From an uncultured Anaerolineales bacterium (GTDB lineage Bacteria > Chloroflexota > Anaerolineae > B4-G1): a DNA stretch of 64,000 bases. The stretch spans positions 186,128 through 250,127 of the forward strand of contig CAZHAX010000001.1 of NCBI GenBank assembly GCA_964530325.1, in the 5' to 3' direction. Positions 2,692-52,608 of the stretch are shown here, in pieces. How positions within the stretch are numbered: position 1 is the first letter of the stretch; each line of letters starts with the position of its first letter. The notes beneath the pieces were generated by a model. The model had not been told where the DNA came from, ran no database searches, and saw nothing but the letters and a program-made list of their open reading frames with translations. The translations under genes and the position numbers were made by a program.

Positions 2692-3900
2692 TTGTGTGTG
2701 ACCACCATAGAGAACCGGCAGATGGAAGGCGTTCAGCGGCGTTGGCGCTCCGGCGGTCGTATCTCGCGCCGCCGCTTTCTGCAGCAGGCAGGCATGGCCG
2801 CGGCTGGTCTGCTGCTCTCCGGCTGCGCTGAGGGGCCCGGTGGGGGCGATCTGCCGGCCGGCGATGGCGGTGTCCCCTTGGCCAGGGTGGGCACGGCGAG
2901 GGCCCCGAGCTACGACGAAGCGCTCGTCCGCCGGGAGCTGTCCACGATCTTTGACAACCTGGGTGGCCTGGGCGACGTCATAGGTTCGGGTGACAAGGTG
3001 GCCATCAAGACGAATCTTACCGGGGGCTCGTACCAGCGGCAGGTCGATGGTCTTCCCAATACCGAGACGTTCTTCACACACCCGGTTGTTGTGGAGGCCG
3101 TGGCGGAGCTGATGATCGACGCCGGCGCGGGCCAGGTGTGCATCGTCGAGGCGGTGTACGATTGGCCATCCTACACGCTGTTCGGCTTCGACGTGTTCGC
3201 CGAGAGGCTGGGTGCGACGCTCATCGATCTCAACGGCGCTGAGCCCTACAGCACTCTGTCACAGGACGAGGTCGGCGAGGGATGGTTCGTCTACGATCGC
3301 TTCTACTCCAACCGCATCCTGAATGAGGTGGACGTTCTGGTCTCTGTCTCCAAGATGAAGGGGCACGGGGAAGCGGGGGTGACTCACACGCTCAAGAACA
3401 TGGTCGGCTCTGTGCCCTGGCGCTTCTACGAGCTCGAGCTTCCCGGCCTGCGGGGGTACCGCTCGGAGTTCCACGGATTGGGCGACGAGACGAGGGCCCG
3501 CCTGCCGCGCGTGATAACGGACCTGAACCGCGCTCACCCTGTTGATATCGGCGTCGTCGATGGCATTAAGACGATGGAGGGGGGCGAGGGTCCCTGGATC
3601 GAGGGGGTGAGGTCGATCCAGCCGGGCGTGCTCATCGCCGGCAAGAGCGCGCTGGCAGTCGACGCGGTCGCCACGGGGGTGATGGGCTTCGACCCAACGG
3701 CCGAGTATCCTGACCCGCCGTTCCTGCACTGCGAAAACCACCTGAATCTGGCCCGCGAGCTGGGGCTGGGGACGAACAGGCTGGAGGTGATTGAAGTTGT
3801 CGGTCCCCCAATCGAGGAGCTGGTGACGCCGTTCAAGGTGGTACAGGCACCTCGCGCCGGCGCTGTGGCGGAAGCGATCTGCCCGTCAGTTGCGGGCTAG
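2692..3900 (+). CDS. DUF362-family protein with twin-arginine (Tat) signal and lipobox
   Basis: SRRRFLQQAGMAAAGLLLSGC is a Tat motif plus lipobox. Motifs KVAIKTNL, FTHP, VSVSKMKGHG are typical of DUF362. Start is ambiguous: TTG at 2692 or ATG at 2722. Confidence 0.6.
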   Translation: MCVTTIENRQMEGVQRRWRSGGRISRRRFLQQAGMAAAGLLLSGCAEGPGGGDLPAGDGGVPLARVGTARAPSYDEALVRRELSTIFDNLGGLGDVIGSGDKVAIKTNLTGGSYQRQVDGLPNTETFFTHPVVVEAVAELMIDAGAGQVCIVEAVYDWPSYTLFGFDVFAERLGATLIDLNGAEPYSTLSQDEVGEGWFVYDRFYSNRILNEVDVLVSVSKMKGHGEAGVTHTLKNMVGSVPWRFYELELPGLRGYRSEFHGLGDETRARLPRVITDLNRAHPVDIGVVDGIKTMEGGEGPWIEGVRSIQPGVLIAGKSALAVDAVATGVMGFDPTAEYPDPPFLHCENHLNLARELGLGTNRLEVIEVVGPPIEELVTPFKVVQAPRAGAVAEAICPSVAG

Positions 3901-4578
3901 TTGCGGTCGACCCTGCGCTGGAGCCGGGCGGCATCCTCCTCCTGGGGGACTGCGGGCGGGGATCTGCTTCACCATGTCCATGCCGCTGCCGATGCGTCTG
4001 CAAGAAGCTGAATTGCCTAGTCTCATGGCCTGCCGGGAGCCGGCGGAGCGCAAGGTCCAGACTGTGAGGCAGGCGCGGGTCGCGGCAAACTCACATAGCG
4101 CGGACGGTCGGATCTACGTCGTCTTGCAGTGCCCTCGATTGTCCAGCATACTCGTTATGTGATCGAGCCGCACAGACAGCGTGGCGTCTCATCGTGGGCG
4201 GCCGGGCGTACCATGGAACACCCGCAGTCGCAGAGATGCCAATCGGCAGACCGCGGCTCGGGAACATAAGCAGCCCTGTCTTTGCCGCCAATCCCGGCGG
4301 GACGCTGATCGGTCGCGTGACAGGAGCACTGGGCAGGTGCGATGCAACGACCTTACATTCCCGTGGACGCTACGCCGGTCGCCTGGAGCGAGGCCTGGTG
4401 CGCTTGCCCGGAGGGCTGCCGAGCTCTGGGCCCTGAGCCTCCGCTGCGTGCTTTCTACGCCCGAATCCCGAAGCTGGAACCGCAACCGTGGCTCTTGGCG
4501 TCTCCAGGAATCGGTCGACAAGGTGCTCGGCGGGCACGGCATTTCCGCTTCGGTCAGGCGAATCACCGCGTTGGCAAG

Positions 4579-5238
4579 ATGATGGACTCGAGCGTGGAAC
4601 GCATCCTACTCCATATCAATGCTGTGGCGGGCGTGACCGGCTGCTTCGTCTGCAACAAGAATGGAGAGATCGTGGCCTCCGCCCTACCCGGTATCTTTGA
4701 CCAAGTCATTCTGCGGGCCGTAGCGAAGGCTATCACCCAGACCTTTGCCGGGTTGGCGATCGCCCATCGGCGGAAGACAGCCGATATCGACCTGGTCTAC
4801 GCCGAGAACCGCCTGATCGCCAAGAGCCTGAAGGACATTTGTCTGTGCATGATCTGCGTGCGCAGCATCAACCTGCCACTCCTGAATCTGACAGCTGAGA
4901 CAGCGGCAAGAGAGCTGACGGCCGCTCTCAAAGGTGAGGTTGCGGAGAAGCCATTGCCAGGCCGTGAGGAAGGAGGGCCAGCGGCTGAGACGGTAGGGGC
5001 CGCCTTCCTCGGCCAGTTGGAGTGCGACCTGGCCAGAGCGATCGGCCCGATCGCCAATCTGGTTGTAAACGAGAAGATACAGGCCCTGGGTGAGAGTAGG
5101 GAGTCTTTCCCCTGGCGCGAGGCGAACCGCTTGATAGAAGAGGTCGGCGGCGAGATCACCGATGAGGGGAAGAGGACCCAGTTCAGCGGGGCCGCCCTGC
5201 GGGCACTGCGAGAGCAGACGAAGGGAAATGAAGCATGA
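4579..5238 (+). CDS. Roadblock/LC7 (MglB-like) domain protein, CxC/LNLTA subfamily
   Basis: MMDSSVERILLHINAVAGVTGCFVCNKNGEIVAS... is a Roadblock fold signature. The C-terminal CLCMICVRSINLPLLNLTAETAAREL is shared with paralogs at 48261, 48930 and 49845. The track ORF starts at 4342, but the upstream 79 codons are R/W-rich and non-protein-like. ATG ATG at 4579 is preferred. Confidence 0.65.
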   Translation: MMDSSVERILLHINAVAGVTGCFVCNKNGEIVASALPGIFDQVILRAVAKAITQTFAGLAIAHRRKTADIDLVYAENRLIAKSLKDICLCMICVRSINLPLLNLTAETAARELTAALKGEVAEKPLPGREEGGPAAETVGAAFLGQLECDLARAIGPIANLVVNEKIQALGESRESFPWREANRLIEEVGGEITDEGKRTQFSGAALRALREQTKGNEA

Positions 5239-6020
5239 AGATCACAATCGGTGCCAGGCTTGGATTCGGCTTTCTGGTCATGCTCCTGCTGGTCGCCACG
5301 GCTGGCTTGACTGCCGTCATCTCTTTCGATAGACTAGCCGACCTGACCGCCGCGCTGGCTGAGGAAGGCGACGAGCTGCGGACCATCACAGATATCAGGG
5401 TGGTCGTAGCGGAAGCCCACGCTGCCTTGGAGAGGGCGATGGTGACCGGCGAAGAAGAGGATGTCGCCGCAGCCGAATTGCGGCAATCGGAGTTGCAGGA
5501 GATGGTGACGGCCTACCTGGACAGCAAGGAAGCCGCGGGGGTCGAGAATGAAGCGTTTGAGGAGCTGGAACTCGCCCAACAGTTGTTGGACGACACCCTG
5601 GAGAGCTACCTGCATGCCTCGGATCTCAGTGCCAACCTACGCCTTACAGCCTTCTCCCGGCGGCAGGAGCTGGTCGATTTCTGCCTGACGATCTTGACCG
5701 AGATTGAGAGTGAGGCCAAGGACCGGATGGCAGACGCCCTGGAGGAAATCCAGAGCGCTCAGTCCTCGCTGCTGCTGATGATGAGTGGCGTTACCGTCGT
5801 CGCTGCCGTCATAGGGGCAGGACTGGCGGTGGGGATCACCCGTAGCGTGACCGTCCCTGTGGGGAAGCTCGTCAGCGCGGCTGACAAGATCAGCACAGGT
5901 GACCTAGACGCGCTCATGGAAGTGCGGTCGCAGGACGAGATCGGTGAGTTGGCCGACTCGATGGAGCGTATGCGCGTCAGCATGAAGGCGGCCTTGGGGA
6001 GACTCAAGAAGCAGCAATAG
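5235..6020 (+). CDS. Membrane sensor with periplasmic four-helix-bundle-like domain and HAMP domain, no output domain
   Basis: TM1 (FGFLVMLLLVATAGLTAVISF), about 150-aa helical region, TM2 (VTVVAAVIGAGLAVGI), HAMP (TRSVTVPVGKLVSAADKISTGDLDALMEVRSQDEIGELADSMERMRVSM). ATGA overlap with the upstream Roadblock gene. Confidence 0.65.
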   Translation: MKITIGARLGFGFLVMLLLVATAGLTAVISFDRLADLTAALAEEGDELRTITDIRVVVAEAHAALERAMVTGEEEDVAAAELRQSELQEMVTAYLDSKEAAGVENEAFEELELAQQLLDDTLESYLHASDLSANLRLTAFSRRQELVDFCLTILTEIESEAKDRMADALEEIQSAQSSLLLMMSGVTVVAAVIGAGLAVGITRSVTVPVGKLVSAADKISTGDLDALMEVRSQDEIGELADSMERMRVSMKAALGRLKKQQ

Positions 6021-6061
6021 CCAGATGCTCTCTGAGCGGGTCAAAGGGTTGGGGGCGGTGC

Positions 6062-6502
6062 TCAGGCCGGCACCGTATCGAGCGGATCGGGAGTTGCTGG
6101 ATCGAGGCCAAGCGTGGGGGCCATATCGCGCGTCGACTGGTCGGTGATGAACTCGACCCACAACGGGAAGTGGTCTGAGATGTGGTAGGACATCTGGCGG
6201 AGGGTGATCTCCTGGTAGACCGCGCCGGCGAAATCGATCACGCCGGTGCGCCCGGTTGATTCCAGATCTAAATCGCCCATGAACCAGGCGATGTGGTCGT
6301 GGAACTCCGGATCGCTGCCGTAGGTGGTCTTGAGCCCGTGCAGCTGGGCCGGGACGATCAGGCTGGCCAGCCCTGAAGGCCGCACCCGGCGCTGGTCGTA
6401 GATGAGGGCGAGCCGCTCGGCGCTGCCGGCGAAGCGCCCCTTTTCCTCTAGCTGATCCTCTCCAGCACGACTGCCTCTCTGCCTCGGGCAGCGACTCTCC
6501 AC
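6062..6502 (-). pseudogene. Truncated paralog of endonuclease/exonuclease/phosphatase (EEP) gene 9450..10496, lacking the N-terminal catalytic half and about 100 internal residues
   Basis: The C-terminal ~90 aa are about 85% identical to the C-terminus of the 9450..10496 product (LKTTYG..DHIAWFMGD..GVIDF.GAVYQEITLRQMSY..SDHFPLWVEFITD..MAPTLGLDPATPDPL). The upstream 25 codons and the N-terminal WNIR/IAIQEV catalytic region are absent. Confidence 0.5.
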
Positions 6503-6747: not shown

Positions 6748-9351
6748 CTACTCGGGCTGGGTAGAGGAGAGGAGTCCCAGCTCGCGCGCCCGCGCGACTG
6801 CCTGGGTGCGGCTCCGCACCGCCAGCTTGCCGTAGATGCTGCTGCAGTGCCGCTTCACCGTGTTCAGGGCGATCACCAGCTCGTCGGCGATCTCCTGATT
6901 GGAGTAGCCGCGGCCGATCAGGATGAGGACTTCGAACTCCCGGGGAGTCAGCTGCTCGACGAGGGAGTCAGCGACGGGCGACCCGGCTGAGGCTGGTCCG
7001 AACTCCGCCAGGAGCCTCTCCACGTAGTCCGGCTCGATCGAGCCCGACGCGGCCTCGCGAAGAAGCCGGGCCATCGCCGGCCCCTCGCTCACGAAGACGC
7101 GGATGAACCCCTCCGGTGCGGCCAGCGCCAGCGCGCGCTTCAGAGAATCGAGCGCCGCTTCTCTCTCGCCCTGCGCATCCAGGGCCAGTGCCATCAGGGC
7201 CCGTATCTCGATGACAAAGGTGTAGGCTCCGCTTGCTTCGTGCAGGCCCAGCAGTGATCTCAGCGATTCCAGCGCCCCTTCCGGCTCGCCTCGGGCAATC
7301 AGTGCGCGCGCCCGCAGCGTCTCCAGGGCCTGCATGAAGGCTGAGGGCAGCGTAACGCGGTCTTCGCCAGCGGCATCGTCGCCGGGGGCGAACACGGCCT
7401 TCGTCCCCTCCACCCACCGCAGCACCTTCTCCGGCTCGCCTGCGTCAAGCTGCAGGCGAGCCCGCTGGGCGGCCCATCTGAAGTTGGCCATCGAGTGCGA
7501 GCCTTCGACTGAACTGACCTCCGCTGCCTCGCGCAGTGCCTCCCAGGCACCCTCGCTGTCGCCCCGCGCCTGCCTCAGCCGGGACATTGCCGTGTAGGCT
7601 TCGTTGAGCGTCTGTGTGGCTCCTACGCCGAGCGAGAGCTCAACAGCGTTGTCCAGCAGACGTTCTGCCTCGTCCAGCTCGTGCCGCTCGATGTGGACAC
7701 CGGCCAGTTCTACGTGGCCCGCGGCAGCCAAGGGTGTCTGCTTGGCCAGATCGATCACGGCGCGGCAGGACGCGGCCGAGTCCTGCAGCTTGCCCCGATG
7801 GTACTGAGCCAATGCCAAGGCCTCCGTGGCCTCGACCGCCAGCAGGATGTGGCCGTCTGCCAGGGCCGTCTCGCGGGCCTGTGTCGCCGCCTCTACGGCC
7901 GCGCCTAGCTGGTTGTCGAACGCAGCGAAGAAGGCCCTGGCTGTCCTGTCGATCGTATCCAGCAGGCGGGTCAGCTCATCTCGCAGCGGTTTGCTGTCTG
8001 GGGCAGGGGGCAGGGCCTCAAGGGACTTCCTGCATTCCTGCAGTGCCTGCTGGGCTGGGCCCAGGTGGCCGTTCATGAACAGCGCCCAGGCCCGGTAGAC
8101 CTGCAGACGGGGGCGGGCGCCAAGCACGTCCTCAGGCAAAGTGTCCACCCAGCGCAGCAGCGTCGTCAGCCGGGCATCGAGCTGGCCTCCGGCAGCGGCC
8201 TGCTCGGCGATGCGGGCCACCCGATCGAAGTCCTCCGCCGTCCGGGCGTGCTTGACAGCCTCGTTGAGCAGCCCTGCCCGCTCGAGCCACTCGGCGGCGC
8301 GCCGGTGGAGATCCTGAATTTGATTGTGCTGCAGGGTCTGCCCAAGCCGCTTGCGAAGAAGGTCGCGGAAGAGATGATGGTAGCGATACCATCGTTGCTC
8401 GTCATCTAGCGGTATGACGAAGAGGTTATCCCGCTCGAGGAGAGCGAGCGTTTCTGCACGCTGGCGATCGCCTGAGACGGCGTCGCCAAGAGGCCCGCAG
8501 AGCCGATCCAGTATCGAGGTCCGGATCAGGAAGGACTCGACAGCCTCCGGCTGTTGGCTGAGCACCTCTTCGATGAGATACTCGATGACGTACTGATGGC
8601 TGCCGCCAAAGGCCTGCACCACCGCGTGGCGGTCCTCGCGTCCCTTCATCGACAGCGCGGCCAGAGAAAGGCCAGCAGCCCAACCCTCGGTGCGGGCTTC
8701 GAGCGCAGCGACGTCGTCGCCTGCCAGGCCCAGGCCACAGACATCGTTCAGGAAGGTTGCTGCTTCCTGAGCGTTGAAGCGAAGGTCGCTGGCGCGGAGC
8801 TCCGTCAATTGGCCGCCGGCCCGCAGCCGGGCAACAGGCAGCGGCGGATCGGCTCTGGAAGCGATGACCACGTGGAGCTGCTCCGGCATGTGTTCAAGCA
8901 GGAAGGCCAGGAGCTCGTGAATCGACGCCTCGGTGACCAGGTGGTAGTCATCGAGGATGAGGATGATCCGCCGGGGCAGCTCTGCCAGATCGTTGATCAG
9001 CCCGGTCAGCAACAGCCGCGCCGGCGGAATCTGGGCTGCCTGCAGCAAGGCGCTGGCGCCTTCACCGATGCCCGGTTGGGCCTTCTGCAGAGCGGCGATG
9101 ACGTAGGCCCAGAATCGCGGTGCATCGTTGTCGTCTTCGTCGAGTGATAGCCAGGCGATCAGCTCCTGCCGCCCGGCTGCCCACTCGGACAGCAGCGTCG
9201 TCTTGCCGGAACCGGCAGAGGCGGACACGAGCGTGATACGGTGGCCCAGGCGCATGCCCTCATCTAGTCGCTCGATGAGGCGCGGCCGGCTCACCAGGTC
9301 GCTCCGCGGGGGCGGGGCATACAGCTTTGTGGCCAGGAGTGGTGCGCTCAT
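6748..9351 (-). CDS. MalT-like LuxR-family transcriptional regulator (AAA+/STAND ATPase, TPR-like middle, C-terminal LuxR HTH)
   Basis: N-terminus MSAPLLATKLYAPPPRSDLVSRPRLIERL...LVSASAGSGKTTLL is the MalT/GerE-type Walker A. C-terminus LTPREFEVLILIGRGYSNQEIADELVIALNTVKRHCSSIYGKL is the LuxR HTH. The ATG at 9351 is the internal Met of the track ORF. Confidence 0.85.
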   Translation of the reverse strand: MSAPLLATKLYAPPPRSDLVSRPRLIERLDEGMRLGHRITLVSASAGSGKTTLLSEWAAGRQELIAWLSLDEDDNDAPRFWAYVIAALQKAQPGIGEGASALLQAAQIPPARLLLTGLINDLAELPRRIILILDDYHLVTEASIHELLAFLLEHMPEQLHVVIASRADPPLPVARLRAGGQLTELRASDLRFNAQEAATFLNDVCGLGLAGDDVAALEARTEGWAAGLSLAALSMKGREDRHAVVQAFGGSHQYVIEYLIEEVLSQQPEAVESFLIRTSILDRLCGPLGDAVSGDRQRAETLALLERDNLFVIPLDDEQRWYRYHHLFRDLLRKRLGQTLQHNQIQDLHRRAAEWLERAGLLNEAVKHARTAEDFDRVARIAEQAAAGGQLDARLTTLLRWVDTLPEDVLGARPRLQVYRAWALFMNGHLGPAQQALQECRKSLEALPPAPDSKPLRDELTRLLDTIDRTARAFFAAFDNQLGAAVEAATQARETALADGHILLAVEATEALALAQYHRGKLQDSAASCRAVIDLAKQTPLAAAGHVELAGVHIERHELDEAERLLDNAVELSLGVGATQTLNEAYTAMSRLRQARGDSEGAWEALREAAEVSSVEGSHSMANFRWAAQRARLQLDAGEPEKVLRWVEGTKAVFAPGDDAAGEDRVTLPSAFMQALETLRARALIARGEPEGALESLRSLLGLHEASGAYTFVIEIRALMALALDAQGEREAALDSLKRALALAAPEGFIRVFVSEGPAMARLLREAASGSIEPDYVERLLAEFGPASAGSPVADSLVEQLTPREFEVLILIGRGYSNQEIADELVIALNTVKRHCSSIYGKLAVRSRTQAVARARELGLLSSTQPE

Positions 9352-9449
9352 CCCGACCCATATTACCACGGTTCGCTTCTCGCCCCAAATGGCGGGCGCG
9401 GGGGGTCAGGCTATCGGGCTGCGGCCGCTTGTCGGGCCGGTGGCCGCTT

Positions 9450-10496
9450 TCAGTCCGGGACAGACTCAAGGGGATCTGGCGTGGCCGGGTCCAGGCCGAG
9501 CGTCGGGGCCATCGCCCGGGTCGAGCGATCGGTGATGAACTCGACCCAGAGGGGGAAGTGGTCGGAGACGCGATAGGACATCTGGCGAAGCGTGATCTCC
9601 TGGTACACGGCGCCTGAGAAGTCGATCACGCCGGCGCGCCCCGTGTAGTCCAGGTCGAAGTCGCCCATGAACCAGGCGATGTGGTCGTAGTACTTCGGCT
9701 CGGTCCCGTAGGTGGTCTTCAAGCCCAGTAGCTCTGAGGGGACGATGAGGCCGGTGGAGACGAAGGTCTGGAAGAGCGGGTTGTTGCCCCGCTTGTCTAT
9801 GTTGAAGTCGCCGAGGACGATGAGATTCGCCTCCTCCGCTTCGGCGATCCTGGCCCGATCGCGTATCTCGGCTGCGGCGTACCGGGCCAGTGCACGTAGC
9901 TCCGGGAGCCGCTCCTCTGGCACATCGCCGTACTTGATGTGGACGGTGAGCAGAACGAAGCGCTCATCACCGGAGACGAAACCGACGATGTAGGGTGTGC
10001 GGGCGAACTGGTCCGCCGCCAGCGGCGCCCTGTCCCGCCCCTCGAAGGGCGGCAGGACGATCTCGCCGGCCAGGCCGGATGGCTGCACCCGCCGCTGGTC
10101 GTAGATGAAGGCCAGGCGCTCTGCGTTGCCGGCTGAGCCGGCGGTGACGTCGCTGACGATCATGCCCCAGTTCGGTCCCAGGAAGTCGCTGAGGAGGGCC
10201 CGGATGCCGGACGTATCTCGCTTGACCTCCTGAATGGCGATGACGTCGAAGCGGCGGACAATCTCAGCAATCGAAGCGAGCGACCGCAGATTGCGCTTGG
10301 GCGTGCCGGGGTTCTCGTCCCATCCGGGGGAGTAGTCGCCGAGAGCTCTGATATTCCAGGTGCCCACCAGCAGGTTGCTGTCCGACCGCTTGTCGGGCAG
10401 GCCGGACTGGTCGATGCGCCGCCTGAGCCTGGCGATGTCCTCAACGACCGGGAGAGGGTAGTCCGCGTACCTCATGCTCGCACCTCCTGTGCGCAC
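9450..10496 (-). CDS. Endonuclease/exonuclease/phosphatase (EEP, DNase I-like) family protein
   Basis: LLVGTWNIRALG, FDVIAIQEV, LIVLGDFN, SDHFPLWVEF are canonical EEP motifs. Alternative start at 10475 (MRYADYP). Confidence 0.8.
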   Translation of the reverse strand: MRTGGASMRYADYPLPVVEDIARLRRRIDQSGLPDKRSDSNLLVGTWNIRALGDYSPGWDENPGTPKRNLRSLASIAEIVRRFDVIAIQEVKRDTSGIRALLSDFLGPNWGMIVSDVTAGSAGNAERLAFIYDQRRVQPSGLAGEIVLPPFEGRDRAPLAADQFARTPYIVGFVSGDERFVLLTVHIKYGDVPEERLPELRALARYAAAEIRDRARIAEAEEANLIVLGDFNIDKRGNNPLFQTFVSTGLIVPSELLGLKTTYGTEPKYYDHIAWFMGDFDLDYTGRAGVIDFSGAVYQEITLRQMSYRVSDHFPLWVEFITDRSTRAMAPTLGLDPATPDPLESVPD

Positions 10497-46605: not shown

Positions 46606-47037
46606 TCAGCACAGGGTTGCTCTTATCAATGCCACCGCCCGGCTCGTCACCCGGCGGTACGATGTTCCTGGTGGGATGCTGGCGATCAGGATCAAGTTCT
46701 CACCGTCCAGGCTGATCTCGCGGCAGACCAGTCGCGCGCCATCGCTGGTGCGTAGCGTCACTTCGTCCACGTCGGCCAGCCCCAACTGCTTCTGTGCCTC
46801 GCTGCCGGCCTTCCGCAGAACTGCTATTAGAGCCGCCGTCGTGTCGCTGCTGTACTCGGCGGGAACGGTGGCTATCGGCAGGCCCTTGGAGGAGGCCAGC
46901 ACCACGGCGCGGAAACCGCCTTCCGCGTAAGCGGCGGCCAGGGCCTCGTCCAGGGAAACTGGCTGCGACCTCTTGCCTTTCGTTCTCCTAGCGCTCATTT
47001 GCAGGACCTCCTGTGGTGTCACGTCGCTCTGTCGCAC
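46606..47037 (-). CDS. Roadblock/LC7 domain protein (MglB-like), immediately downstream of mglA
   Basis: GFRAVVLASSKGLPIATVPAEYSSDTTAALIAVL...ENLILIASIP is the Roadblock signature. 5-nt gap to mglA. Confidence 0.7.
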   Translation of the reverse strand: MRQSDVTPQEVLQMSARRTKGKRSQPVSLDEALAAAYAEGGFRAVVLASSKGLPIATVPAEYSSDTTAALIAVLRKAGSEAQKQLGLADVDEVTLRTSDGARLVCREISLDGENLILIASIPPGTSYRRVTSRAVALIRATLC

Positions 47038-47041
47038 CTGA

Positions 47042-47626
47042 CTACAGCTGCCTCTGAGCCTTGGCCACGACCAGGTTGATGATCGCCTTCAAGGTCTCGA
47101 AGACGCCCGTGCCCTCCGTAGCCACCGATTCCAAGCACGGCACTCCGTTGAAGCTGAGCTGCTGCTGCATCACGTGGACGGGCACGATGTCCAGCAGATC
47201 CCGCTTGTTGCACTGCAGCACGAGGGGCATGGTTCTGGAATCGCAGCCCAGATCCATCAGGTTCTCGTCCATATTGCGGCGCATATCGACATTGGCCCGC
47301 TCCCGATCCTGCTGGGAGTCGGCGACGAACACAATCCCGTCTGCCCCTTGCAGTACCAGCTTCCGGCTGCCTACGTAGTAGACCTGCCCTGGCACTGTGT
47401 ACAGATTGAAGCGCGGCTTGAGCCCGGCGATCTGGCCCAGCTCCAGCTGCAGAAAGTCGAAGTAGATGGTACGGTCGCCGCGCGTCTTGAGCGACACCAA
47501 CTCGCCCCGGATCTTGGGGCTTGTCTTCAGGTGGATGTACTGCAGGTTCGTCGTCTTGCCGCTGAGTGCGGGCCCGTAGTACACGATCTTGAGGTTGATC
47601 TCACGCAGCTTCCAGTTGATGAACAT
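47042..47626 (-). CDS. mglA: MglA-family Ras-like small GTPase
   Basis: [32 protein letters not shown]...[13 protein letters not shown]...YTVPGQVYY...QCNKRDL is near-collinear with M. xanthus MglA ([49 protein letters not shown]). Confidence 0.9.
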   Translation of the reverse strand: [194 protein letters not shown]

Positions 47627-47641
47627 TGGCCGTGTCCGGTT

Positions 47642-48130
47642 CTAGAGCCCGCCGAATTCCTCTTCCAGCGCGCTGGCCAGAGCTGCGCCGAAGTCCGCAC
47701 CTGGCCCATCCTGCGTGGAGACCAACATCTGCTCGAATCCCTCTGTCAACTCGTGCAGCTCGGTTGCCGCCCGTCCGGCGAAGAGCCTGACCAGGCCCAC
47801 CAACGTATCCGAGCTGAAGATAACAACCAGTATGAAGGTCCCTCCCACGTTGTACAAGTAGATGTTGTGCTTCTCTCCTTCGTGGAGAAAGGCCCCGCTG
47901 GGCTGCTCTTCTCCGATCAGCCTGTTCAGCTCGGCCGTTGCCGCCAGATCACCGGCCGCCAGGGCGGCGACAAGCGTTGGATCGGTCTCCAGTCTGCCCT
48001 GGGCGGCGACCAGCCGGCCTGTGATGTCCGCGAGCAGGACGCATTCGGCGCTCGTCTTCTCGCGCAGATGCGCCATTACTCGCTCAATCCGATCTGACAT
48101 CTCCTCTGGCAGCGCGAAGTCGCTCGTCAC
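47642..48130 (-). CDS. Roadblock/LC7 domain protein
   Basis: ECVLLADITGRLVAAQG...HNIYLYNVGGTFILVVIFS is the Roadblock fold pattern. Confidence 0.65.
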   Translation of the reverse strand: MTSDFALPEEMSDRIERVMAHLREKTSAECVLLADITGRLVAAQGRLETDPTLVAALAAGDLAATAELNRLIGEEQPSGAFLHEGEKHNIYLYNVGGTFILVVIFSSDTLVGLVRLFAGRAATELHELTEGFEQMLVSTQDGPGADFGAALASALEEEFGGL

Positions 48131-48260
48131 GTGAGTACCTCGATTCTCGGTGCTGTACCGGTGGGTTGTGCGACGCGCGGCGGCAGTTGGGCAGTTCGTT
48201 ACCGCCTCCAGCGCGGCCGTTCACTAGCGTCGCTCAGGTGTCAGGGTGCCTAGGCGATCG

Positions 48261-48752
48261 TCAGCGTCTCAGTGTCGACGCCATCATCTCGGCGCGGGTC
48301 ATCCGCCTGCCGTCTTCAGGCCCGGAGCCGTCGTCCTGCTCCGCCTTCGCGGCTGCTGCAGCCGGCGCCGGCGTCGCAGCTACTGGAGCTCCGCTCAGGT
48401 CGATCTCCTTGATGCGCTGGCGCAGCTTGCCCACAGCCACGTCCGCCGTGAGGTTCAGCAGCGGCACGTTGATGCGCCGAACGCATATAATCCCGAGCAC
48501 GCCGCCTTCGGACCCAAGCCCTTTGACGATCAGGCGGCTGTCGGCGTACAGCAGGTCGATGTCGCCAACCTTTCTGCGCCGGGCAGTGTGCAGCCCGGCA
48601 ACGGTCTGCGCCATCGTGCGCGCCACAGGCGATAGGACGGCGTCGTCAAAGACCTCCGGGAGGGCCCTGGCGAGCATTTCCCCATCGCTGTCGCAGACGA
48701 ACGAGCCGGTCACTCCGACAACGGCATTGACGTCCTGCAGTATTTCTTCCAT
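48261..48752 (-). CDS. Roadblock/LC7 domain protein, CxC/LNLTA subfamily (paralog of 4579..5238)
   Basis: MEEILQDVNAVVGVTGSFVCDSDGEMLARALP...GIICVRRINVPLLNLTADVAVGKL. Start at the internal Met (48752). Confidence 0.65.
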   Translation of the reverse strand: MEEILQDVNAVVGVTGSFVCDSDGEMLARALPEVFDDAVLSPVARTMAQTVAGLHTARRRKVGDIDLLYADSRLIVKGLGSEGGVLGIICVRRINVPLLNLTADVAVGKLRQRIKEIDLSGAPVAATPAPAAAAAKAEQDDGSGPEDGRRMTRAEMMASTLRR

Positions 48753-48929
48753 CACACTAACCTCCACTGCCAACTCGTGAGACCTGCACGCCACCGGACG
48801 CTACGTTGTGGGCGGATGCCCTCCAGGCGACACGGGTCCCAGCAGTATCCGCCTGGCTCGATCCTCGCGGTCGGTCCTGAACCTGCTCGACGCTCCACGT
48901 CCGTTCTCTGCGCTGACAACTGCACGCTG

Positions 48930-49424
48930 CTACTGTGCATCCTTTCTAGAGCTCCTGCCTGTCGACGTGCGACTGAGAACCGCCAGCATTTCTGTCTTGG
49001 TCATTGGCTCGGGAGCCGCTTTCGTGCCCGCTTGCTCACGCGGTTGTGTCTGCAGCAGGGCTCCTGCTGCTTTCATCTCCGCGATCATCTGCTCCAGCTT
49101 CCTGGCGGCGAGGTTTGCCGTGACGTTCAGAAGTGCCACGTTGATTTGGGCTATGCAGACCAGACATAGGCAGCCCTCTGTGCCCAGGGGTTTGAGTATG
49201 AGCCGGCCACCATCGTACATCAGGTCGATGTCCCCCATCTTGCTCTTCCCGTTCGTCTTGGCAGCAGCAACGATCTTCGCTACTGCCTCCATGACGGCTT
49301 GGGGGGGAGATGCCTGGCTCACGCCTGGCGACATCACGTGCTCCAAGAGCTTCCCGCCATCGGAGACGACAAAGGCGCCGATCACTCCATTAACTGCGCT
49401 GATGTCCATCAGGATGTTTCGCAT
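48930..49424 (-). CDS. Roadblock/LC7 domain protein, CxC/LNLTA subfamily
   Basis: MRNILMDISAVNGVIGAFVVSDGGKLLEH...CLCLVCIAQINVALLNVTANLAARKL. Confidence 0.65.
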   Translation of the reverse strand: MRNILMDISAVNGVIGAFVVSDGGKLLEHVMSPGVSQASPPQAVMEAVAKIVAAAKTNGKSKMGDIDLMYDGGRLILKPLGTEGCLCLVCIAQINVALLNVTANLAARKLEQMIAEMKAAGALLQTQPREQAGTKAAPEPMTKTEMLAVLSRTSTGRSSRKDAQ

Positions 49425-49448
49425 CTTGCACCGTCCTGCCTGCTGCGT

Positions 49449-49772
49449 CTAGCCAAGAGCTTCCCGCGCGCTCGAGGCGACTATCGCTGGTGAGGCTCTG
49501 TCCGCCAGGAGCAGACCTACGTAGTAGTCTGGCTGCTCCATTACGAGCACAACCTCGTTGCCAATCGTCACCGTGCCCCAGTCGAAGGGGCCGAGGGCGA
49601 GCGATTCGCTCGCCTGGCTCGCCGCGTTGCCAACGAAGACGGCGACAGCCCCTTCCTTGTCCGGACTGGCATCGTTGAGCTCGTGGGCCAGCACTATTCC
49701 ATCACGTGCAGCTATCACCACCCCGTCCACTCCATCGATCTTGCTCAACTTGGCGGCCAATTCCTGTATCAT
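49449..49772 (-). CDS. Roadblock/LC7 domain protein (minimal, 107 aa)
   Basis: KIDGVDGVVIAARDGIVLAHEL...WGTVTIGNEVVLVMEQPDYYVGLLL. Confidence 0.7.
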   Translation of the reverse strand: MIQELAAKLSKIDGVDGVVIAARDGIVLAHELNDASPDKEGAVAVFVGNAASQASESLALGPFDWGTVTIGNEVVLVMEQPDYYVGLLLADRASPAIVASSAREALG

Positions 49773-49844
49773 TCCGATGCCTCCCTTCAGCCTCCCGAGC
49801 CGTCTTGTCTGGACCGGCGCCGCCTGCCCGGATAGCGCGCTTAC

Positions 49845-50315
49845 CTAGGTCCAGAGATCGAGCACCTTCTCCAGGATGCCCTCGGTGCTCTGGGCCATGG
49901 CGGGCTCCCGCCCTGGCCCCTGCTCAGGGGATGATTGCTCTGGTATTGTCTTCCTCTTGGGTAGTTTCTTGATCATTCGTCCCAGCTTTCGGGCGGCCAC
50001 GTTGGCCGTCAGATTCACCTGCGACACGTCGGCGTGGGGAGCACACAGTATGCACAGGCAGCCCGAGCCGGAGACCTTGACGACCAGCCGTCCGTTGCTG
50101 CAGTGGAGGTCGACTTCGCCGACGTCAGACAAGCTCACGCTCTTCAAGCCGGTGACGATTTGGGCCACGCTGGACGCCGCGCACCCCTGTGCTGTACCGT
50201 TGCCGCTTCCGGGGGGCACCGCGACCGCGAGTAGCGCGCCATCCCCATCGCAGACGAATGAGCCAATCACTCCGTATATCGCGTTGATGTCACTCAGTAT
50301 GCTGTCCATCGCCAC
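49845..50315 (-). CDS. Roadblock/LC7 domain protein, CxC/LNLTA subfamily
   Basis: MAMDSILSDINAIYGVIGSFVCDGDGALLA...CLCILCAPHADVSQVNLTANVAARKL. Confidence 0.65.
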   Translation of the reverse strand: MAMDSILSDINAIYGVIGSFVCDGDGALLAVAVPPGSGNGTAQGCAASSVAQIVTGLKSVSLSDVGEVDLHCSNGRLVVKVSGSGCLCILCAPHADVSQVNLTANVAARKLGRMIKKLPKRKTIPEQSSPEQGPGREPAMAQSTEGILEKVLDLWT

Positions 50316-50328
50316 TCGTTCTGAGCTT

Positions 50329-51396
50329 CTAGTGCAAGGCTTGCTTGGCGCTGGCCGCTACGTTGGCGGCCGATGCCCTCTGGTTGAGCAGCATCCCTAC
50401 GAAGTAGTCTGGCCGCTCCATCAGCAGCATCTTCTCCTTGCCGAGCGCCACCGTGCCCCAACTGAAGCTGCCAAGAGACAGCGGCTTTCCCAGTTGGCCG
50501 GCGGCACCCAGCACGAGAACGGCTATGGAGCCCCTGTTTCCGGGCGCGTCATCCAACTCGTGGGCGACCACGGACCCGTCGTGCGCAACGACGACGACCC
50601 CTGTGACACCCTGTATATCCTTGAGAGCGCTGGCCAGGTTCGCGGCTACCTGGTCACCGTCGACTTCGGTCTCATCAGTGAGGAGCTCCAGGTCGACCAA
50701 GCCGGCCATCCCCTCGTCCATGCGGCGGGCGCCTTCCAGCAGCAGTCCGGACCAGCTGCCCTCGATCGTCCTCTTGGGAGCGGAGACGCCCATCTGCAAC
50801 TCGAATTCCCCCTCTTCCCAGGTCAGGAGCTCATAGACGGCATCCGCGCCTGTTTTCTTACCCAGGGCGGCGTGGACGACGTTGCCTTCGGCGAAGTAGA
50901 CCTTGCCTTCTTGGCCGGCCTGCCGGATCCGGAGTAGCGCCTCGTTCCGCTCTGCGCAGTTGATCTGCACGATGTTGGGCAGACTCAGGCTGCGCAGGTT
51001 GCCCTGAACGACCGCGCCACCCTTCGACTCCAGGATACGGCGCACCGCCGCCACCAGGGTCTTGGCATCGAGGGGCTTCTCCAGGAACTCGCAGGCGCCA
51101 AGCTGCAGGGCCTCGACTACGTTCTCCTTCGTGCCGTAGGCCGTGAGGATTGCGACTGAGGCCCGTGGGTTGTGCTCTCTGATCGCGGCCAGAAGCTTGA
51201 GGCCGTCCATGCCGGGCATCTTCAGGTCTGTGACCACGAGGTCGAAGTCCTCGCTCCGGTACAGCTTGATCGCGCTGGCGCCGTCCGAGGCTCCCTCGAC
51301 GGAGAAGCCTTCCAGCTGGAGTATCCTCTTGCACGTCTTGACCACGTTGGGTTCGTCGTCTACCACTAGAACGCGTTTCTGAGCCATTGCCACCAC
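50329..51396 (-). CDS. Response regulator receiver + DUF4388 (PATAN-like) + C-terminal Roadblock/LC7 domain
   Basis: REC (RVLVVDDEPNVV...LVVTDLKMPGMDG...KPL). The middle region LPNIVQINCAERNEALLRIRQAGQEGKVYFAEGNVVHAALGKKTGADAVYELLTWEEGEFEL matches the DUF4388 consensus as I recall it. The C-terminus IQGVTGVVVVAHDGSVVAHEL...WGTVALGKEKMLLMERPDYFVGMLL is a Roadblock domain closely related to 49449..49772. Confidence 0.75.
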   Translation of the reverse strand: MVAMAQKRVLVVDDEPNVVKTCKRILQLEGFSVEGASDGASAIKLYRSEDFDLVVTDLKMPGMDGLKLLAAIREHNPRASVAILTAYGTKENVVEALQLGACEFLEKPLDAKTLVAAVRRILESKGGAVVQGNLRSLSLPNIVQINCAERNEALLRIRQAGQEGKVYFAEGNVVHAALGKKTGADAVYELLTWEEGEFELQMGVSAPKRTIEGSWSGLLLEGARRMDEGMAGLVDLELLTDETEVDGDQVAANLASALKDIQGVTGVVVVAHDGSVVAHELDDAPGNRGSIAVLVLGAAGQLGKPLSLGSFSWGTVALGKEKMLLMERPDYFVGMLLNQRASAANVAASAKQALH

Positions 51397-51425
51397 TCCC
51401 TCATTCAGTCAGCTAACGCCTGCTC

Positions 51426-52455
51426 CTAGCCGTCAAGCTCCGGCGGAATGATTCCCTTTGCCACTGCCGATTCATAGTCCAGCAGCTCTCTGTCCTCCTC
51501 GTCTCCGTAGAGGTCCTGTGCCTCGAGTTCCTTCCGGCTGGGGCCCGGAGCCGGCGCGGCGGCGGGCCTGGCCTCACCTGATGCCTCAGACAGCACCGCA
51601 TCAAGCTCTGCCATCAGCGAGGAGCCGAACTCCGCGTCCAGTACCTGAGCGGGCACGCTGGCCGTGCTGTCAGCCAGCGTGTTCATCAGGCTCTCGACCG
51701 CTCTCCTGGTGTAGAGCCACACAAGCCCAATCCGGCTTGCCTGGGCCTTCCGATCGTAGACGATGGCCAGGAAGAAGTCCTCCCCCACGTTGGCGGAGTA
51801 GATCTCGTAGCGCGCACCCTCGTGGAAATTGAGGTTGATCGCATTGCCACTGCCGAAGTACTCGGCCAGCCCTCTGGCGGTAGCGAAGCCGCCTGCCAAC
51901 AGCGAAAGCAGGGCAGAGGGATCCGGCCCCAGCTGGCCCCCGGCCTGTGCCAGGCGCTGGCCCAGCATGTCCGCCAGATGTATCGACTGGGCGCCGATCT
52001 CACGCCGCAGCTCCTCCAGGTGCTTGGTGATCTCCTCAAAGGTCTGATCCGAGAGGATGACCAGGCCCGGTTGGCTCATCGCCTCGTCCGGAAGAGCCCT
52101 CTGGACCGCCTTCATGAGCACGTCCACCTTGAGGGGCTTGGAGATGTATCCGGCTACACCCAGGCTGCGGGCCTCTTCCTCGATCGCGCTGCTGCCGTAT
52201 GCGGTCACCAGAATCGAGCGCGTCTCCGGGCTGGAGGTCTTCACCTGCCGAATCAGCTCCAGGCCGCTGATCCCCGGCATTCTCAGGTCCGTGACCATCA
52301 GGTCCACGTCTTCCTTCGAGATGGCTTGCAGCGCCTCCTCGCCGGACTCGACTACCGTGACCCTGTAGGTCTGGTTCGAGCGCTCCAGCACCTTCTTCAG
52401 AAAGGCCGCTACCGACGGCTCGTCGTGCGCAATGAGGATGTGTTTCTGGGCCATT
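51426..52455 (-). CDS. Response regulator receiver + Roadblock-like C-terminal domain
   Basis: REC (HILIAHDEPSVAAFL...LMVTDLRMPGISG...KPL). C-terminal FHEGARYEIYSANVGEDFFLAIVY is Roadblock-like. ATG at 52455 is the internal Met of the track ORF. Confidence 0.7.
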
Positions 52456-52608
52456 TGCCTATATCTGCTCTCGCGGAAGCAGTACCGAGCCGTTTGGCCC
52501 TGGCTTCCGTCAGCATCTCTATCAACAATATAGCACAAGGGGCACGGTTTGTGGGTTCCGAGAACCTCCCACACAGGGTGCAGTTACGTTCCGGCAGGCG
52601 TAGCCTGC

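Follow-up and report, generated by a model that had tools for sequence, protein, structure and literature searches.

Introduction

In Archaeoglobus fulgidus, two adjacent and translationally coupled genes encode Af1503, the classic receptor with HAMP as its only cytoplasmic domain, and Af1502, the founding stand-alone STAC domain (PMC4834066). Af1503 is the structural prototype of HAMP domains; it has been called 'non-signaling', with no output known (PMC3585426, PMC4834066). The STAC domain is a four-helix bundle composed of two hairpins and a nine-residue connecting loop, with the motif LGPx(x)A between its first and second helices (PMC4834066), and its role is considered unresolved (PMC5715377, PMC13022988). 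Cryo-electron microscopy of CbrA shows STAC docked against a membrane domain on its cytoplasmic side, and a conformational relay has been proposed (PMC13022988). Here we describe a gene pair, A and B, at positions 4579-6020 of a 64,000-nucleotide stretch from an uncultured Anaerolineales bacterium (assembly GCA_964530325.1, contig CAZHAX010000001.1, positions 186,128 to 250,127; G+C about 65%), which we call the window. The pair shares the testable defining features of the Af1503/Af1502 type; what sets it apart from that pair is the fusion of its STAC-like domain to a Roadblock domain and the genomic context of the GTPase MglA. Bacterial or Roadblock-fused forms of STAC may already have been mentioned when STAC was first described (Korycinski et al. 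2015, J Mol Biol).

Results

Gene A ends in a STAC-like domain

The two genes and their parts are as follows; residue numbers refer to the encoded proteins.

4579..5238 (+): gene A, 219-residue cytoplasmic Roadblock-STAC adaptor, stop codon included
4579..4935 (+): Roadblock/LC7-fold domain of the 'CxC / LNLTA' subfamily, gene A residues 1-119
4936..4989 (+): variable linker, gene A residues 120-137, predicted disordered (predicted local distance difference test score, pLDDT, <50 at 121-135)
4990..5235 (+): STAC-like four-helix domain, gene A residues 138-219, Pfam DUF8082 (PF26309 in precomputed tables, predicted helices, PDB profile match)
5041..5055 (+): IGPIA motif at the junction of helices 1 and 2, gene A residues 155-159, counterpart of the STAC motif LGPx(x)A (PMC4834066)
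5235..5238 (+): ATGA start/stop overlap of genes A and B, read directly in the sequence
5235..6020 (+): gene B, 261-residue Af1503-type HAMP-only receptor, stop codon included
5259..5327 (+): first transmembrane (TM) helix, gene B residues ~9-31, hydrophobic LGFGFLVMLLLVATAGLTAVISF, start of a long helix 5-71; boundaries estimated
5328..5768 (+): extracytoplasmic four-helix-bundle sensor, gene B residues ~32-178 (weak 4HB_MCP_1 match, E 0.0011)
5769..5837 (+): second TM helix, gene B residues ~179-201, LLLMMSGVTVVAAVIGAGLAVGI inside a continuous helix 133-220; boundaries estimated
5835..6017 (+): HAMP and short tail, gene B residues 201-261, the sole cytoplasmic part (Pfam HAMP, E 2.3e-13)

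A preliminary description of this locus recognized a Roadblock gene coupled through ATGA to a HAMP-only membrane sensor, and sequence, Pfam HAMP match and fold model all agree with it. It overlooked the C-terminal ~80 residues of gene A. Residues 138-219 form a separate, well-conserved domain after the linker, which itself differs in length and sequence between homologues. The predicted model has four helices (141-155, 159-169, 179-190 and 196-218; pLDDT 81-88) and a loop at 170-178, and has the form expected of STAC, in which some 60-90 residues fold into a four-helix bundle from two hairpins and a connecting loop of about nine residues. G156 and P157 of the IGPIA motif are invariant, and A159 is nearly so, in all family alignments. 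Because the helix order, the position of IGPIA and the nine-residue loop fit the description of Af1502, the domain has the layout of a STAC domain. Among 177,635 sequences searched with profiles of the domain, the top PDB match was Af1502 (5A1Q), with E 0.025 for a 15-sequence profile and 1.6e-5 when 19 more diverse sequences were used; the runner-up had E 0.29. Judged by sequence and predicted helix layout, the C-terminal domain of gene A is STAC-like and of the Af1502 type.

The label DUF8082 comes from precomputed annotation tables; a local copy of Pfam gave no match for the C-terminal half of gene A even at E 10. A profile of the 80-residue domain found only two matches in an index of 5.8 billion proteins, and a profile search of 1.84 billion representatives found 886 STAC-like proteins at E <= 0.001. 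Many of these are stand-alone proteins of 75-110 residues, and the commonest multi-domain form is a fusion to PATAN. The best 148 representatives include 29 PATAN fusions and a few ParA/BY-kinase-like fusions, and some proteins of the representative library (P0095-P0097) contain two or three STAC-like stretches in tandem.

Gene B is a HAMP-only receptor

Gene B has the architecture of an Af1503-like receptor: it has two TM helices and an extracytoplasmic domain, and HAMP is the only domain that it has in the cytoplasm. The Pfam HAMP match covers residues 201-249, and the protein ends about ten residues past HAMP. The AlphaFold2 (AF2) model is all-helical (pLDDT 84) and resembles the sensor-TM-HAMP fragment of NarQ, Tsr and 4HB ligand-binding domains, the sensor reaching a Foldseek TM-score of 0.8 against the last of these (Vc1313-LBD, Adeh_2942). 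In PDB sequence searches, the top three matches to gene B are HAMP constructs of Af1503 (E 4e-7 to 1.4e-5), which outrank Tsr and HtrII; thus gene B and the C-terminal domain of gene A independently converge on Af1503/Af1502 as best matches. The HAMP consensus of the partner family, ADRISxGxLD...DEIGELAxSxERMRxSLKxAxERL, is matched at the signature positions by the HAMP of Af1503, ADKIAEGNLE...DEIGILAKSIERLRRSLKVAMESL. Within the gene B family, HAMP is the most conserved part and the sensor region the least.

No Pfam match to an output domain (HisKA/HATPase_c, MCPsignal, GGDEF, Guanylate_cyc, PP2C) was found after the HAMP of gene B, and the NCBIfam matches, to histidine kinases and chemoreceptors, were confined to their HAMP regions and scored far under the cut-offs. 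The preliminary description had raised the concern that a frameshift might hide an output domain. Homologues of gene B fall into 47 clusters, mostly full length at 257-274 residues (nine are shorter or longer), with 53-68% identity apart from one at 98% and one at 42%. Nearly all of 31 aligned sequences end in the same C-terminus, ...ERLKKQR, and the stop codon lies only 41 nucleotides from a convergent open reading frame (ORF) at 6062-6502. The conserved length, the conserved C-terminus and the lack of downstream space rule out a frameshift or a missed output domain.

The Roadblock half of gene A

Gene A sits in a longer ORF, 4342-5238 (+), in which alignment with 30 homologues places the true start at the ATG at 4579 or 4582. 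About 31 full-length homologues (~190-233 residues, 43-65% identity) carry PF26309/DUF8082 in the precomputed annotation, and the relatives are Anaerolineae or Anaerolineales metagenome-assembled genomes (MAGs). At the junction of the two genes, gaagcATGAagatc, the ATG of gene B (5235-5237) overlaps the TGA of gene A (5236-5238), and the identical four-nucleotide overlap is present in loci L005, L065, L089, L098, L099 and L101.

Residues 1-119 adopt an alpha-beta-beta-alpha-beta-beta-beta(-alpha) fold that can be superposed on MglB, LAMTOR or dynein LC7, and LAMTOR2 is among the top structural matches to gene A. The Pfam cut-off for Robl_LC7 (PF03259; 23 bits) is not reached by the whole of gene A (12.9 bits) or by residues 1-117 (14.6 bits), and a match at E <= 0.001 is found in just two of 57 STAC-containing relatives. 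The Roadblock part of gene A is a divergent Roadblock/LC7 subfamily. It was previously described as a paralogue of Roadblock genes in a cluster 41 kb away, and this is borne out: residues 1-119 share 46%, 32% and 31% identity with the paralogues at 48261-48794, 48930-49424 and 49845-50315, respectively, and 4616-4898 matches 48730-48442 at the DNA level with 67% identity. Strands b1 and b5 of gene A contain five cysteines (C22, C25, C88, C90 and C93; 4642-4653 and 4840-4857) that vary little or not at all among orthologues, and the cluster paralogues retain some of them, not all. From the sequence, they could form a metal or redox site.

The HAMP-only receptor gene accompanies the STAC-like domain

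The preliminary description proposed co-occurrence as the check on whether the pair is meaningful. Loci came from three sources: genomes scanned with motifs of the Roadblock part as the seed, metagenomes scanned with no seed other than the STAC motif, and contigs encoding homologues. They are numbered with the prefix L. The resulting tally comprises 66 distinct STAC ORFs in about 25 clusters below 60% identity. In 50 of the 66 a HAMP gene is next on the same strand, 47 of these within 228 nucleotides, and at L110 the HAMP-only gene lies immediately upstream of the STAC gene. Eleven ORFs are at contig ends and cannot be assessed (one ORF that runs off its contig starts with a Cache sensor), and four have no HAMP neighbor. 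An adjacent HAMP-only gene thus accompanies 51 of 55 assessable STAC genes, regardless of the fusion partner of STAC, and the pair is conserved as neighbors elsewhere. Conversely, all 52 distinct HAMPs of the gene B subfamily in 1.16 Mb of fetched DNA are less than 3 kb from a STAC ORF.

The 50 HAMP partners represent about 20 HAMP clusters, and kinase, MCP, cyclase and GGDEF domains are absent from all of them. The distance from the HAMP match to the stop codon is 0-12 residues in these partners, except in one ORF split by a frameshift (L023). Their sensors are of the dCache_1, sCache, 4HB and TarH types, and 13 of the 50 have an N-terminal zinc ribbon. The STAC-like domain is fused to a Roadblock-like domain in the window and in other Chloroflexota, and elsewhere to PATAN/DUF4388, a small winged-helix-turn-helix-like (wHTH) domain, GntR-FCD or a REC-Ser/Thr kinase; the fusions to PATAN, wHTH, GntR or REC-kinase keep the HAMP-only neighbor.

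Roadblock paralogues of the CxC/LNLTA subfamily that are without STAC behave differently: 56 have no HAMP neighbor and two have one (Fisher p = 5e-5). Judged from ORF tables, both exceptions (L017, L023) are apparently STAC genes split by frameshifts. Since the HAMP-only gene tracks STAC in and outside Roadblock fusions and does not track Roadblock without STAC, the conserved unit is STAC plus the HAMP-only receptor. The earlier proposal that the HAMP sensor signals through the Roadblock protein therefore keeps its basis in adjacency, but the element that co-occurs with HAMP is STAC, and Roadblock proteins lacking it have no HAMP neighbor.

Several loci show further arrangements. At L110:2-1740 the HAMP-only gene is followed by an overlapping gene for a GntR-FCD transcription factor with a C-terminal STAC-like domain, in the Af1503-then-Af1502 order; this arrangement would tie a membrane receptor directly to a DNA-binding protein. 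Two REC-Ser/Thr kinase proteins of 826 and 787 residues (L092:2491-5780 and L102:1999-4362) end in a STAC-like domain, and the first of these genes abuts a gene for a 269-residue HAMP-only receptor with zero intergenic gap. HAMP-only partners of 454-460 residues are paired with wHTH-STAC proteins of about 156 residues in L086, L093, L096-L099 and L101; they have an N-terminal cytoplasmic zinc ribbon and, where checked (e.g., L086), a dCache sensor, and there is no MglA within 6 kb. Tandem HAMP-only genes or two STAC/HAMP-only pairs occur at L010:577-3680, L011:10001-12549, L013:1561-4390, L076 and L078, which suggests duplication and diversification of sensors that feed the same module.

The pair lies within MglA clusters in relatives

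The cluster that we presume to be the downstream partner of the pair is located elsewhere in the window and has the following members.

46606..52574 (-): presumed downstream partner cluster (ORFs; Pfam Robl_LC7, Response_reg and DUF4388 matches)
46606-47037 (-): Roadblock
47042-47626 (-): MglA, matches T. thermophilus and M. xanthus MglA (3T12, 6HJH, 5YMX), E 1e-63
47642-48130 (-): MglB
48261-48794, 48930-49424, 49845-50315 (-): CxC Roadblock paralogues
49449-49772 (-): Roadblock
50329-51396 (-): REC-PATAN-(Roadblock-like C-terminus), the C-terminus assigned from the ORF and from its homologue in L061, with no match in Pfam
51426-52574 (-): REC-Roadblock

As in other MglA/MglB modules, the MglA-family GTPase adjoins Roadblock proteins of the MglB type. 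The proteins that flank MglA match Robl_LC7 with E 2.5e-10 and 3.6e-7, and the NCBIfam match to MglB has E 8e-16, under its cut-off. The end of gene A (5238) is 41.4 kb from the cluster (46606), in agreement with the distance given before, and no STAC or HAMP gene is present inside 46606-52574.

In many relatives the pair is found in the cluster itself. It is directly upstream of MglB-MglA-Roadblock in L006, L008, L011, L013, L065, L067, L072, L074 and L089; in relatives it stands between a CxC paralogue and MglB. In L014, L017, L062, L070, L073, L077, L078 and L080-84 it is beside the triad in another arrangement or a short distance off. In two loci from Zixibacteria and Gemmatimonadota MAGs (L061/L063) the pair is within one tightly packed operon. 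The Roadblock-STAC form inside MglB-MglA-Roadblock operons thus occurs in Anaerolineae, Chloroflexia, Zixibacteria and Gemmatimonadota. These positions support the link to MglA made in the preliminary description, the signaling itself being suggested by gene context. The operon of L061:4823-12057 and L063 encodes Roadblock, CxC-Roadblock, REC-PATAN-Roadblock, Roadblock-STAC, a secreted 375-residue protein, the HAMP-only receptor, TPR-Roadblock, Roadblock, MglA and MglB. STAC and HAMP are separated there by the gene for the secreted protein, with overlapping start and stop codons.

Compared with these in-cluster sets, the window proteins share 46-48% (A), 53-58% (B), 66-68% (MglA), 41-42% (MglB) and 40-44% (Roadblock) identity, the divergent L014 being excluded. 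Because A, B, MglA, MglB and Roadblock of the window all resemble the in-cluster sets, the window pair and the cluster would fit a single system that has split, or is diverging, in this lineage.

The CxC/LNLTA Roadblock-like domain is also fused to other unannotated C-terminal regions (48261-50315 (-), L006:6478-7293, L026-L048), including families of 271 and 385-410 residues and a V4R fusion (P0039). These fusions nearly always directly precede MglB-MglA-Roadblock, and they lack a HAMP partner.

Surroundings of the pair

The genes around the pair encode a DUF362 protein, a nuclease fragment and a MalT-type regulator. The fragment, 6062-6502 (-), duplicates in truncated form the 3' end of an endonuclease/exonuclease/phosphatase-family gene at 9450-10496 (-), with 80% nucleotide identity over 305 nucleotides (6062-6363 versus 9450-9751), and the two copies flank the MalT/LuxR-type STAND regulator at 6748-9369. 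The ~680 nucleotides 5' of gene A (3901-4578) have no convincing gene, and comparable gaps of 0.9-1 kb precede the gene A orthologues in L001 and L005. The three gaps share no sequence conservation, and scans of 3800-6300 for Rfam families, promoters and terminators gave nothing meaningful, with no Rfam match or promoter consensus upstream of gene A.

Discussion

The reading we favor, and hold to be moderately probable, is that genes A and B form a split transmembrane signaling module of the Af1503/Af1502 type, in which the state of HAMP would be read by STAC and passed via the Roadblock domain to MglA. Gene B would be a dimeric receptor that senses through a four-helix bundle outside the cell and has HAMP alone in the cytoplasm, and gene A its cytoplasmic partner, made of a STAC-like domain, a flexible linker and a Roadblock/LC7 domain. 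An external ligand would switch the HAMP bundle between packing states, and the STAC domain of gene A would bind the HAMP of gene B and read its state in trans, probably by contacting the polar face of helix AS2 (ERMRxSLK), which is unusually well conserved. Such binding would alter the membrane recruitment or the pairing of the Roadblock domain, whose partners may be the MglB-type and CxC-type Roadblock proteins encoded at 46.6-52.6 kb. The outcome would be a change in the GTPase cycle of MglA or in its localization, and MglA in turn probably governs polarity or surface motility. We infer the physical contact between STAC and HAMP, the direction of signaling, and MglA as the target in this genome; the model is supported by the gene context, by the conserved polar AS2 residues common with Af1503, and by the CbrA structure as a precedent.

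Several observations weigh against this reading. The alignment with Af1502 spans just 30 residues, and the likeness was judged by sequence and helix layout. The order in the window is STAC then HAMP, the opposite of Af1503 then Af1502. No physical interaction between Af1502 and Af1503 is reported in the literature searched, the STAC domain of CbrA contacts the SLC5 transporter and not a HAMP domain (PMC13022988), and CbrA or CrbS from which STAC had been deleted showed no obvious phenotype (PMC5715377). Most of the loci come from metagenome assemblies, and they are in part redundant. The pair is not beside MglA in the genome of the window, in its closest relatives L001-L005, or in L044, and MglA is absent within 6 kb of many STAC/HAMP-only pairs, among them those with wHTH, PATAN, GntR and REC-kinase fusions. 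MglA is therefore not the general output of such pairs, and would be an output for the Roadblock and PATAN branches only.

An alternative explanation, which we consider unlikely, is that the signal runs from the inside out. The state of MglA and Roadblock would be passed via STAC and HAMP to the bundle of gene B, which would bind or release an outside partner, for example an adhesin, pilus or gliding component, in the fashion of LapD-LapG. In LapD, HAMP is able to transmit that way (PMC4359373), the secreted protein encoded between the STAC and HAMP-only genes in L061/L063 suggests a periplasmic partner, and the extracytoplasmic region of gene B matches ligand-binding families weakly. However, most HAMP-only partners have standard ligand-binding sensors (dCache_1, sCache, 4HB_MCP, TarH), which are typical of outside-in sensing, and the combination of a variable sensor with a conserved HAMP is what one would expect if varied inputs fed a common output.

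It is also rather improbable that the pair regulates solute transport or some other target than MglA, with the Roadblock domain of gene A as a mere dimerization platform. Transport genes are reported to be enriched around Af1503-like receptors, and the Lupas group has proposed a role in the regulation of transport (PMC4834066); the separation of the pair from any GTPase gene in the window and in L001-L005, and the many pairs without a nearby MglA, would fit this explanation as well. However, the pair has no transporter gene beside it in the window, it is the Roadblock-STAC form in particular that occurs inside MglB-MglA-Roadblock operons in the four lineages named above, and the paralogue family of the gene A Roadblock domain is otherwise almost always beside MglA.

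That gene B is what decay or truncation has left of a sensor kinase or chemoreceptor, and that its adjacency to gene A is meaningless, might be suggested by its low-scoring NCBIfam matches, limited to HAMP regions, and by the truncated gene copy just downstream, which shows local rearrangement, but this is hardly credible, and the conservation data contradict it: full-length proteins make up most of the 47 homologue clusters, aligned members share the same C-terminus, none of the 50 partners has an output domain, 51 of 55 assessable STAC genes have the HAMP-only neighbor, and only 41 nucleotides are available downstream.

Beyond the favored model of a split receptor module, we tentatively raise a broader idea, which is possible but which we would not bet on: STAC may be a general, portable reader of HAMP state, so that Af1503-type receptors would signal in trans in both bacteria and archaea and the fusion partner of STAC would set the pathway. 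If true, pathways would be set by Roadblock (toward the MglA GTPase), PATAN, wHTH or GntR transcription factors, and REC-Ser/Thr kinases, and the window would encode a prokaryotic pathway from a receptor through a Roadblock scaffold to a Ras-like GTPase, with a logic like that of Ragulator-Rag or G-protein-coupled signaling. The coupling of HAMP-only receptors to STAC is widespread in bacteria and independent of the type of sensor domain, and STAC is fused to recognizable signaling domains; the output of HAMP-only receptors thereby gains specific candidates that can be approached experimentally. As far as the literature searched goes, the pair is proposed as the first dedicated transmembrane input to MglA-type GTPase modules; searches on DUF8082, or on HAMP with PATAN or MglA, returned nothing relevant.

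Comparison with known systems

The Ragulator (LAMTOR)-Rag system resembles the proposed pathway in that Roadblock-fold proteins on a membrane scaffold regulate small GTPases. This is an analogy only, as nothing is shared in sequence beyond the fold, and both the membrane anchoring and the GTPases differ.

The actinobacterial conservon (CvnA-CvnD; Mfp in mycobacteria) likewise combines a membrane sensor containing HAMP, a protein of the Roadblock/MglB type and a GTPase of the MglA family in an apparent 'G-protein-coupled' system (PMC4316618, PMC13343842). However, CvnA contains a histidine-kinase module, which gene B does not, and the coupling element of the window pair is STAC; no match to CvnC/DUF742 was found among the proteins scanned. 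The MglA of the window matches those of T. thermophilus and M. xanthus, which belong to group 1 of Wuichet and Sogaard-Andersen, whereas the conservon GTPases are in group 2 (PMC4316618). With no kinase module, no CvnC, and the GTPase 41 kb away, the pair is not a conservon.

The MglA-MglB polarity module, with MglC, RomR/RomX and PATAN proteins, is the counterpart of the window cluster, which encodes a true MglA, MglB-like Roadblock proteins, and REC and PATAN proteins. The N-terminal domain of gene A has the MglB fold, but gene A is not an orthologue of MglB. Group 1 and group 5 MglA were reported to have no conserved neighbors except occasional PATAN proteins (Wuichet and Sogaard-Andersen, PMC4316618), and a membrane receptor as an input to MglA is not described in the literature searched.

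The SLC5-STAC kinases CbrA and CrbS carry a small four-helix domain of the same family, located at the cytoplasmic face of a membrane protein, for which a relay was proposed (PMC13022988, PMC5715377). In these kinases STAC is placed covalently between a transporter with 13 TM helices and the kinase, and it docks on the transporter, whereas the STAC-like domain of the window belongs to a separate soluble protein encoded beside a HAMP-only receptor.

Af1503/Af1502 (PDB 2L7H, 4CQ4, 5A1Q) shares with the window pair HAMP as the sole cytoplasmic domain, a coupled neighboring gene for a four-helix domain with the (L/I)GPx(x)A motif, and the AS2 signature ER(L/M)RxSLK. The preliminary description called a Roadblock protein an unusual output for HAMP; the coupling of a HAMP-only receptor to a STAC protein does have a precedent in the Af1503/Af1502 arrangement described by the Lupas laboratory (PMC4834066). 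The two pairs differ in that the family was described as archaeal and the window pair is bacterial (Anaerolineae-like), in that the window STAC is fused to Roadblock instead of standing alone and the gene order is reversed, and in their genomic company, which is an MglA GTPase cluster here and transporters there.

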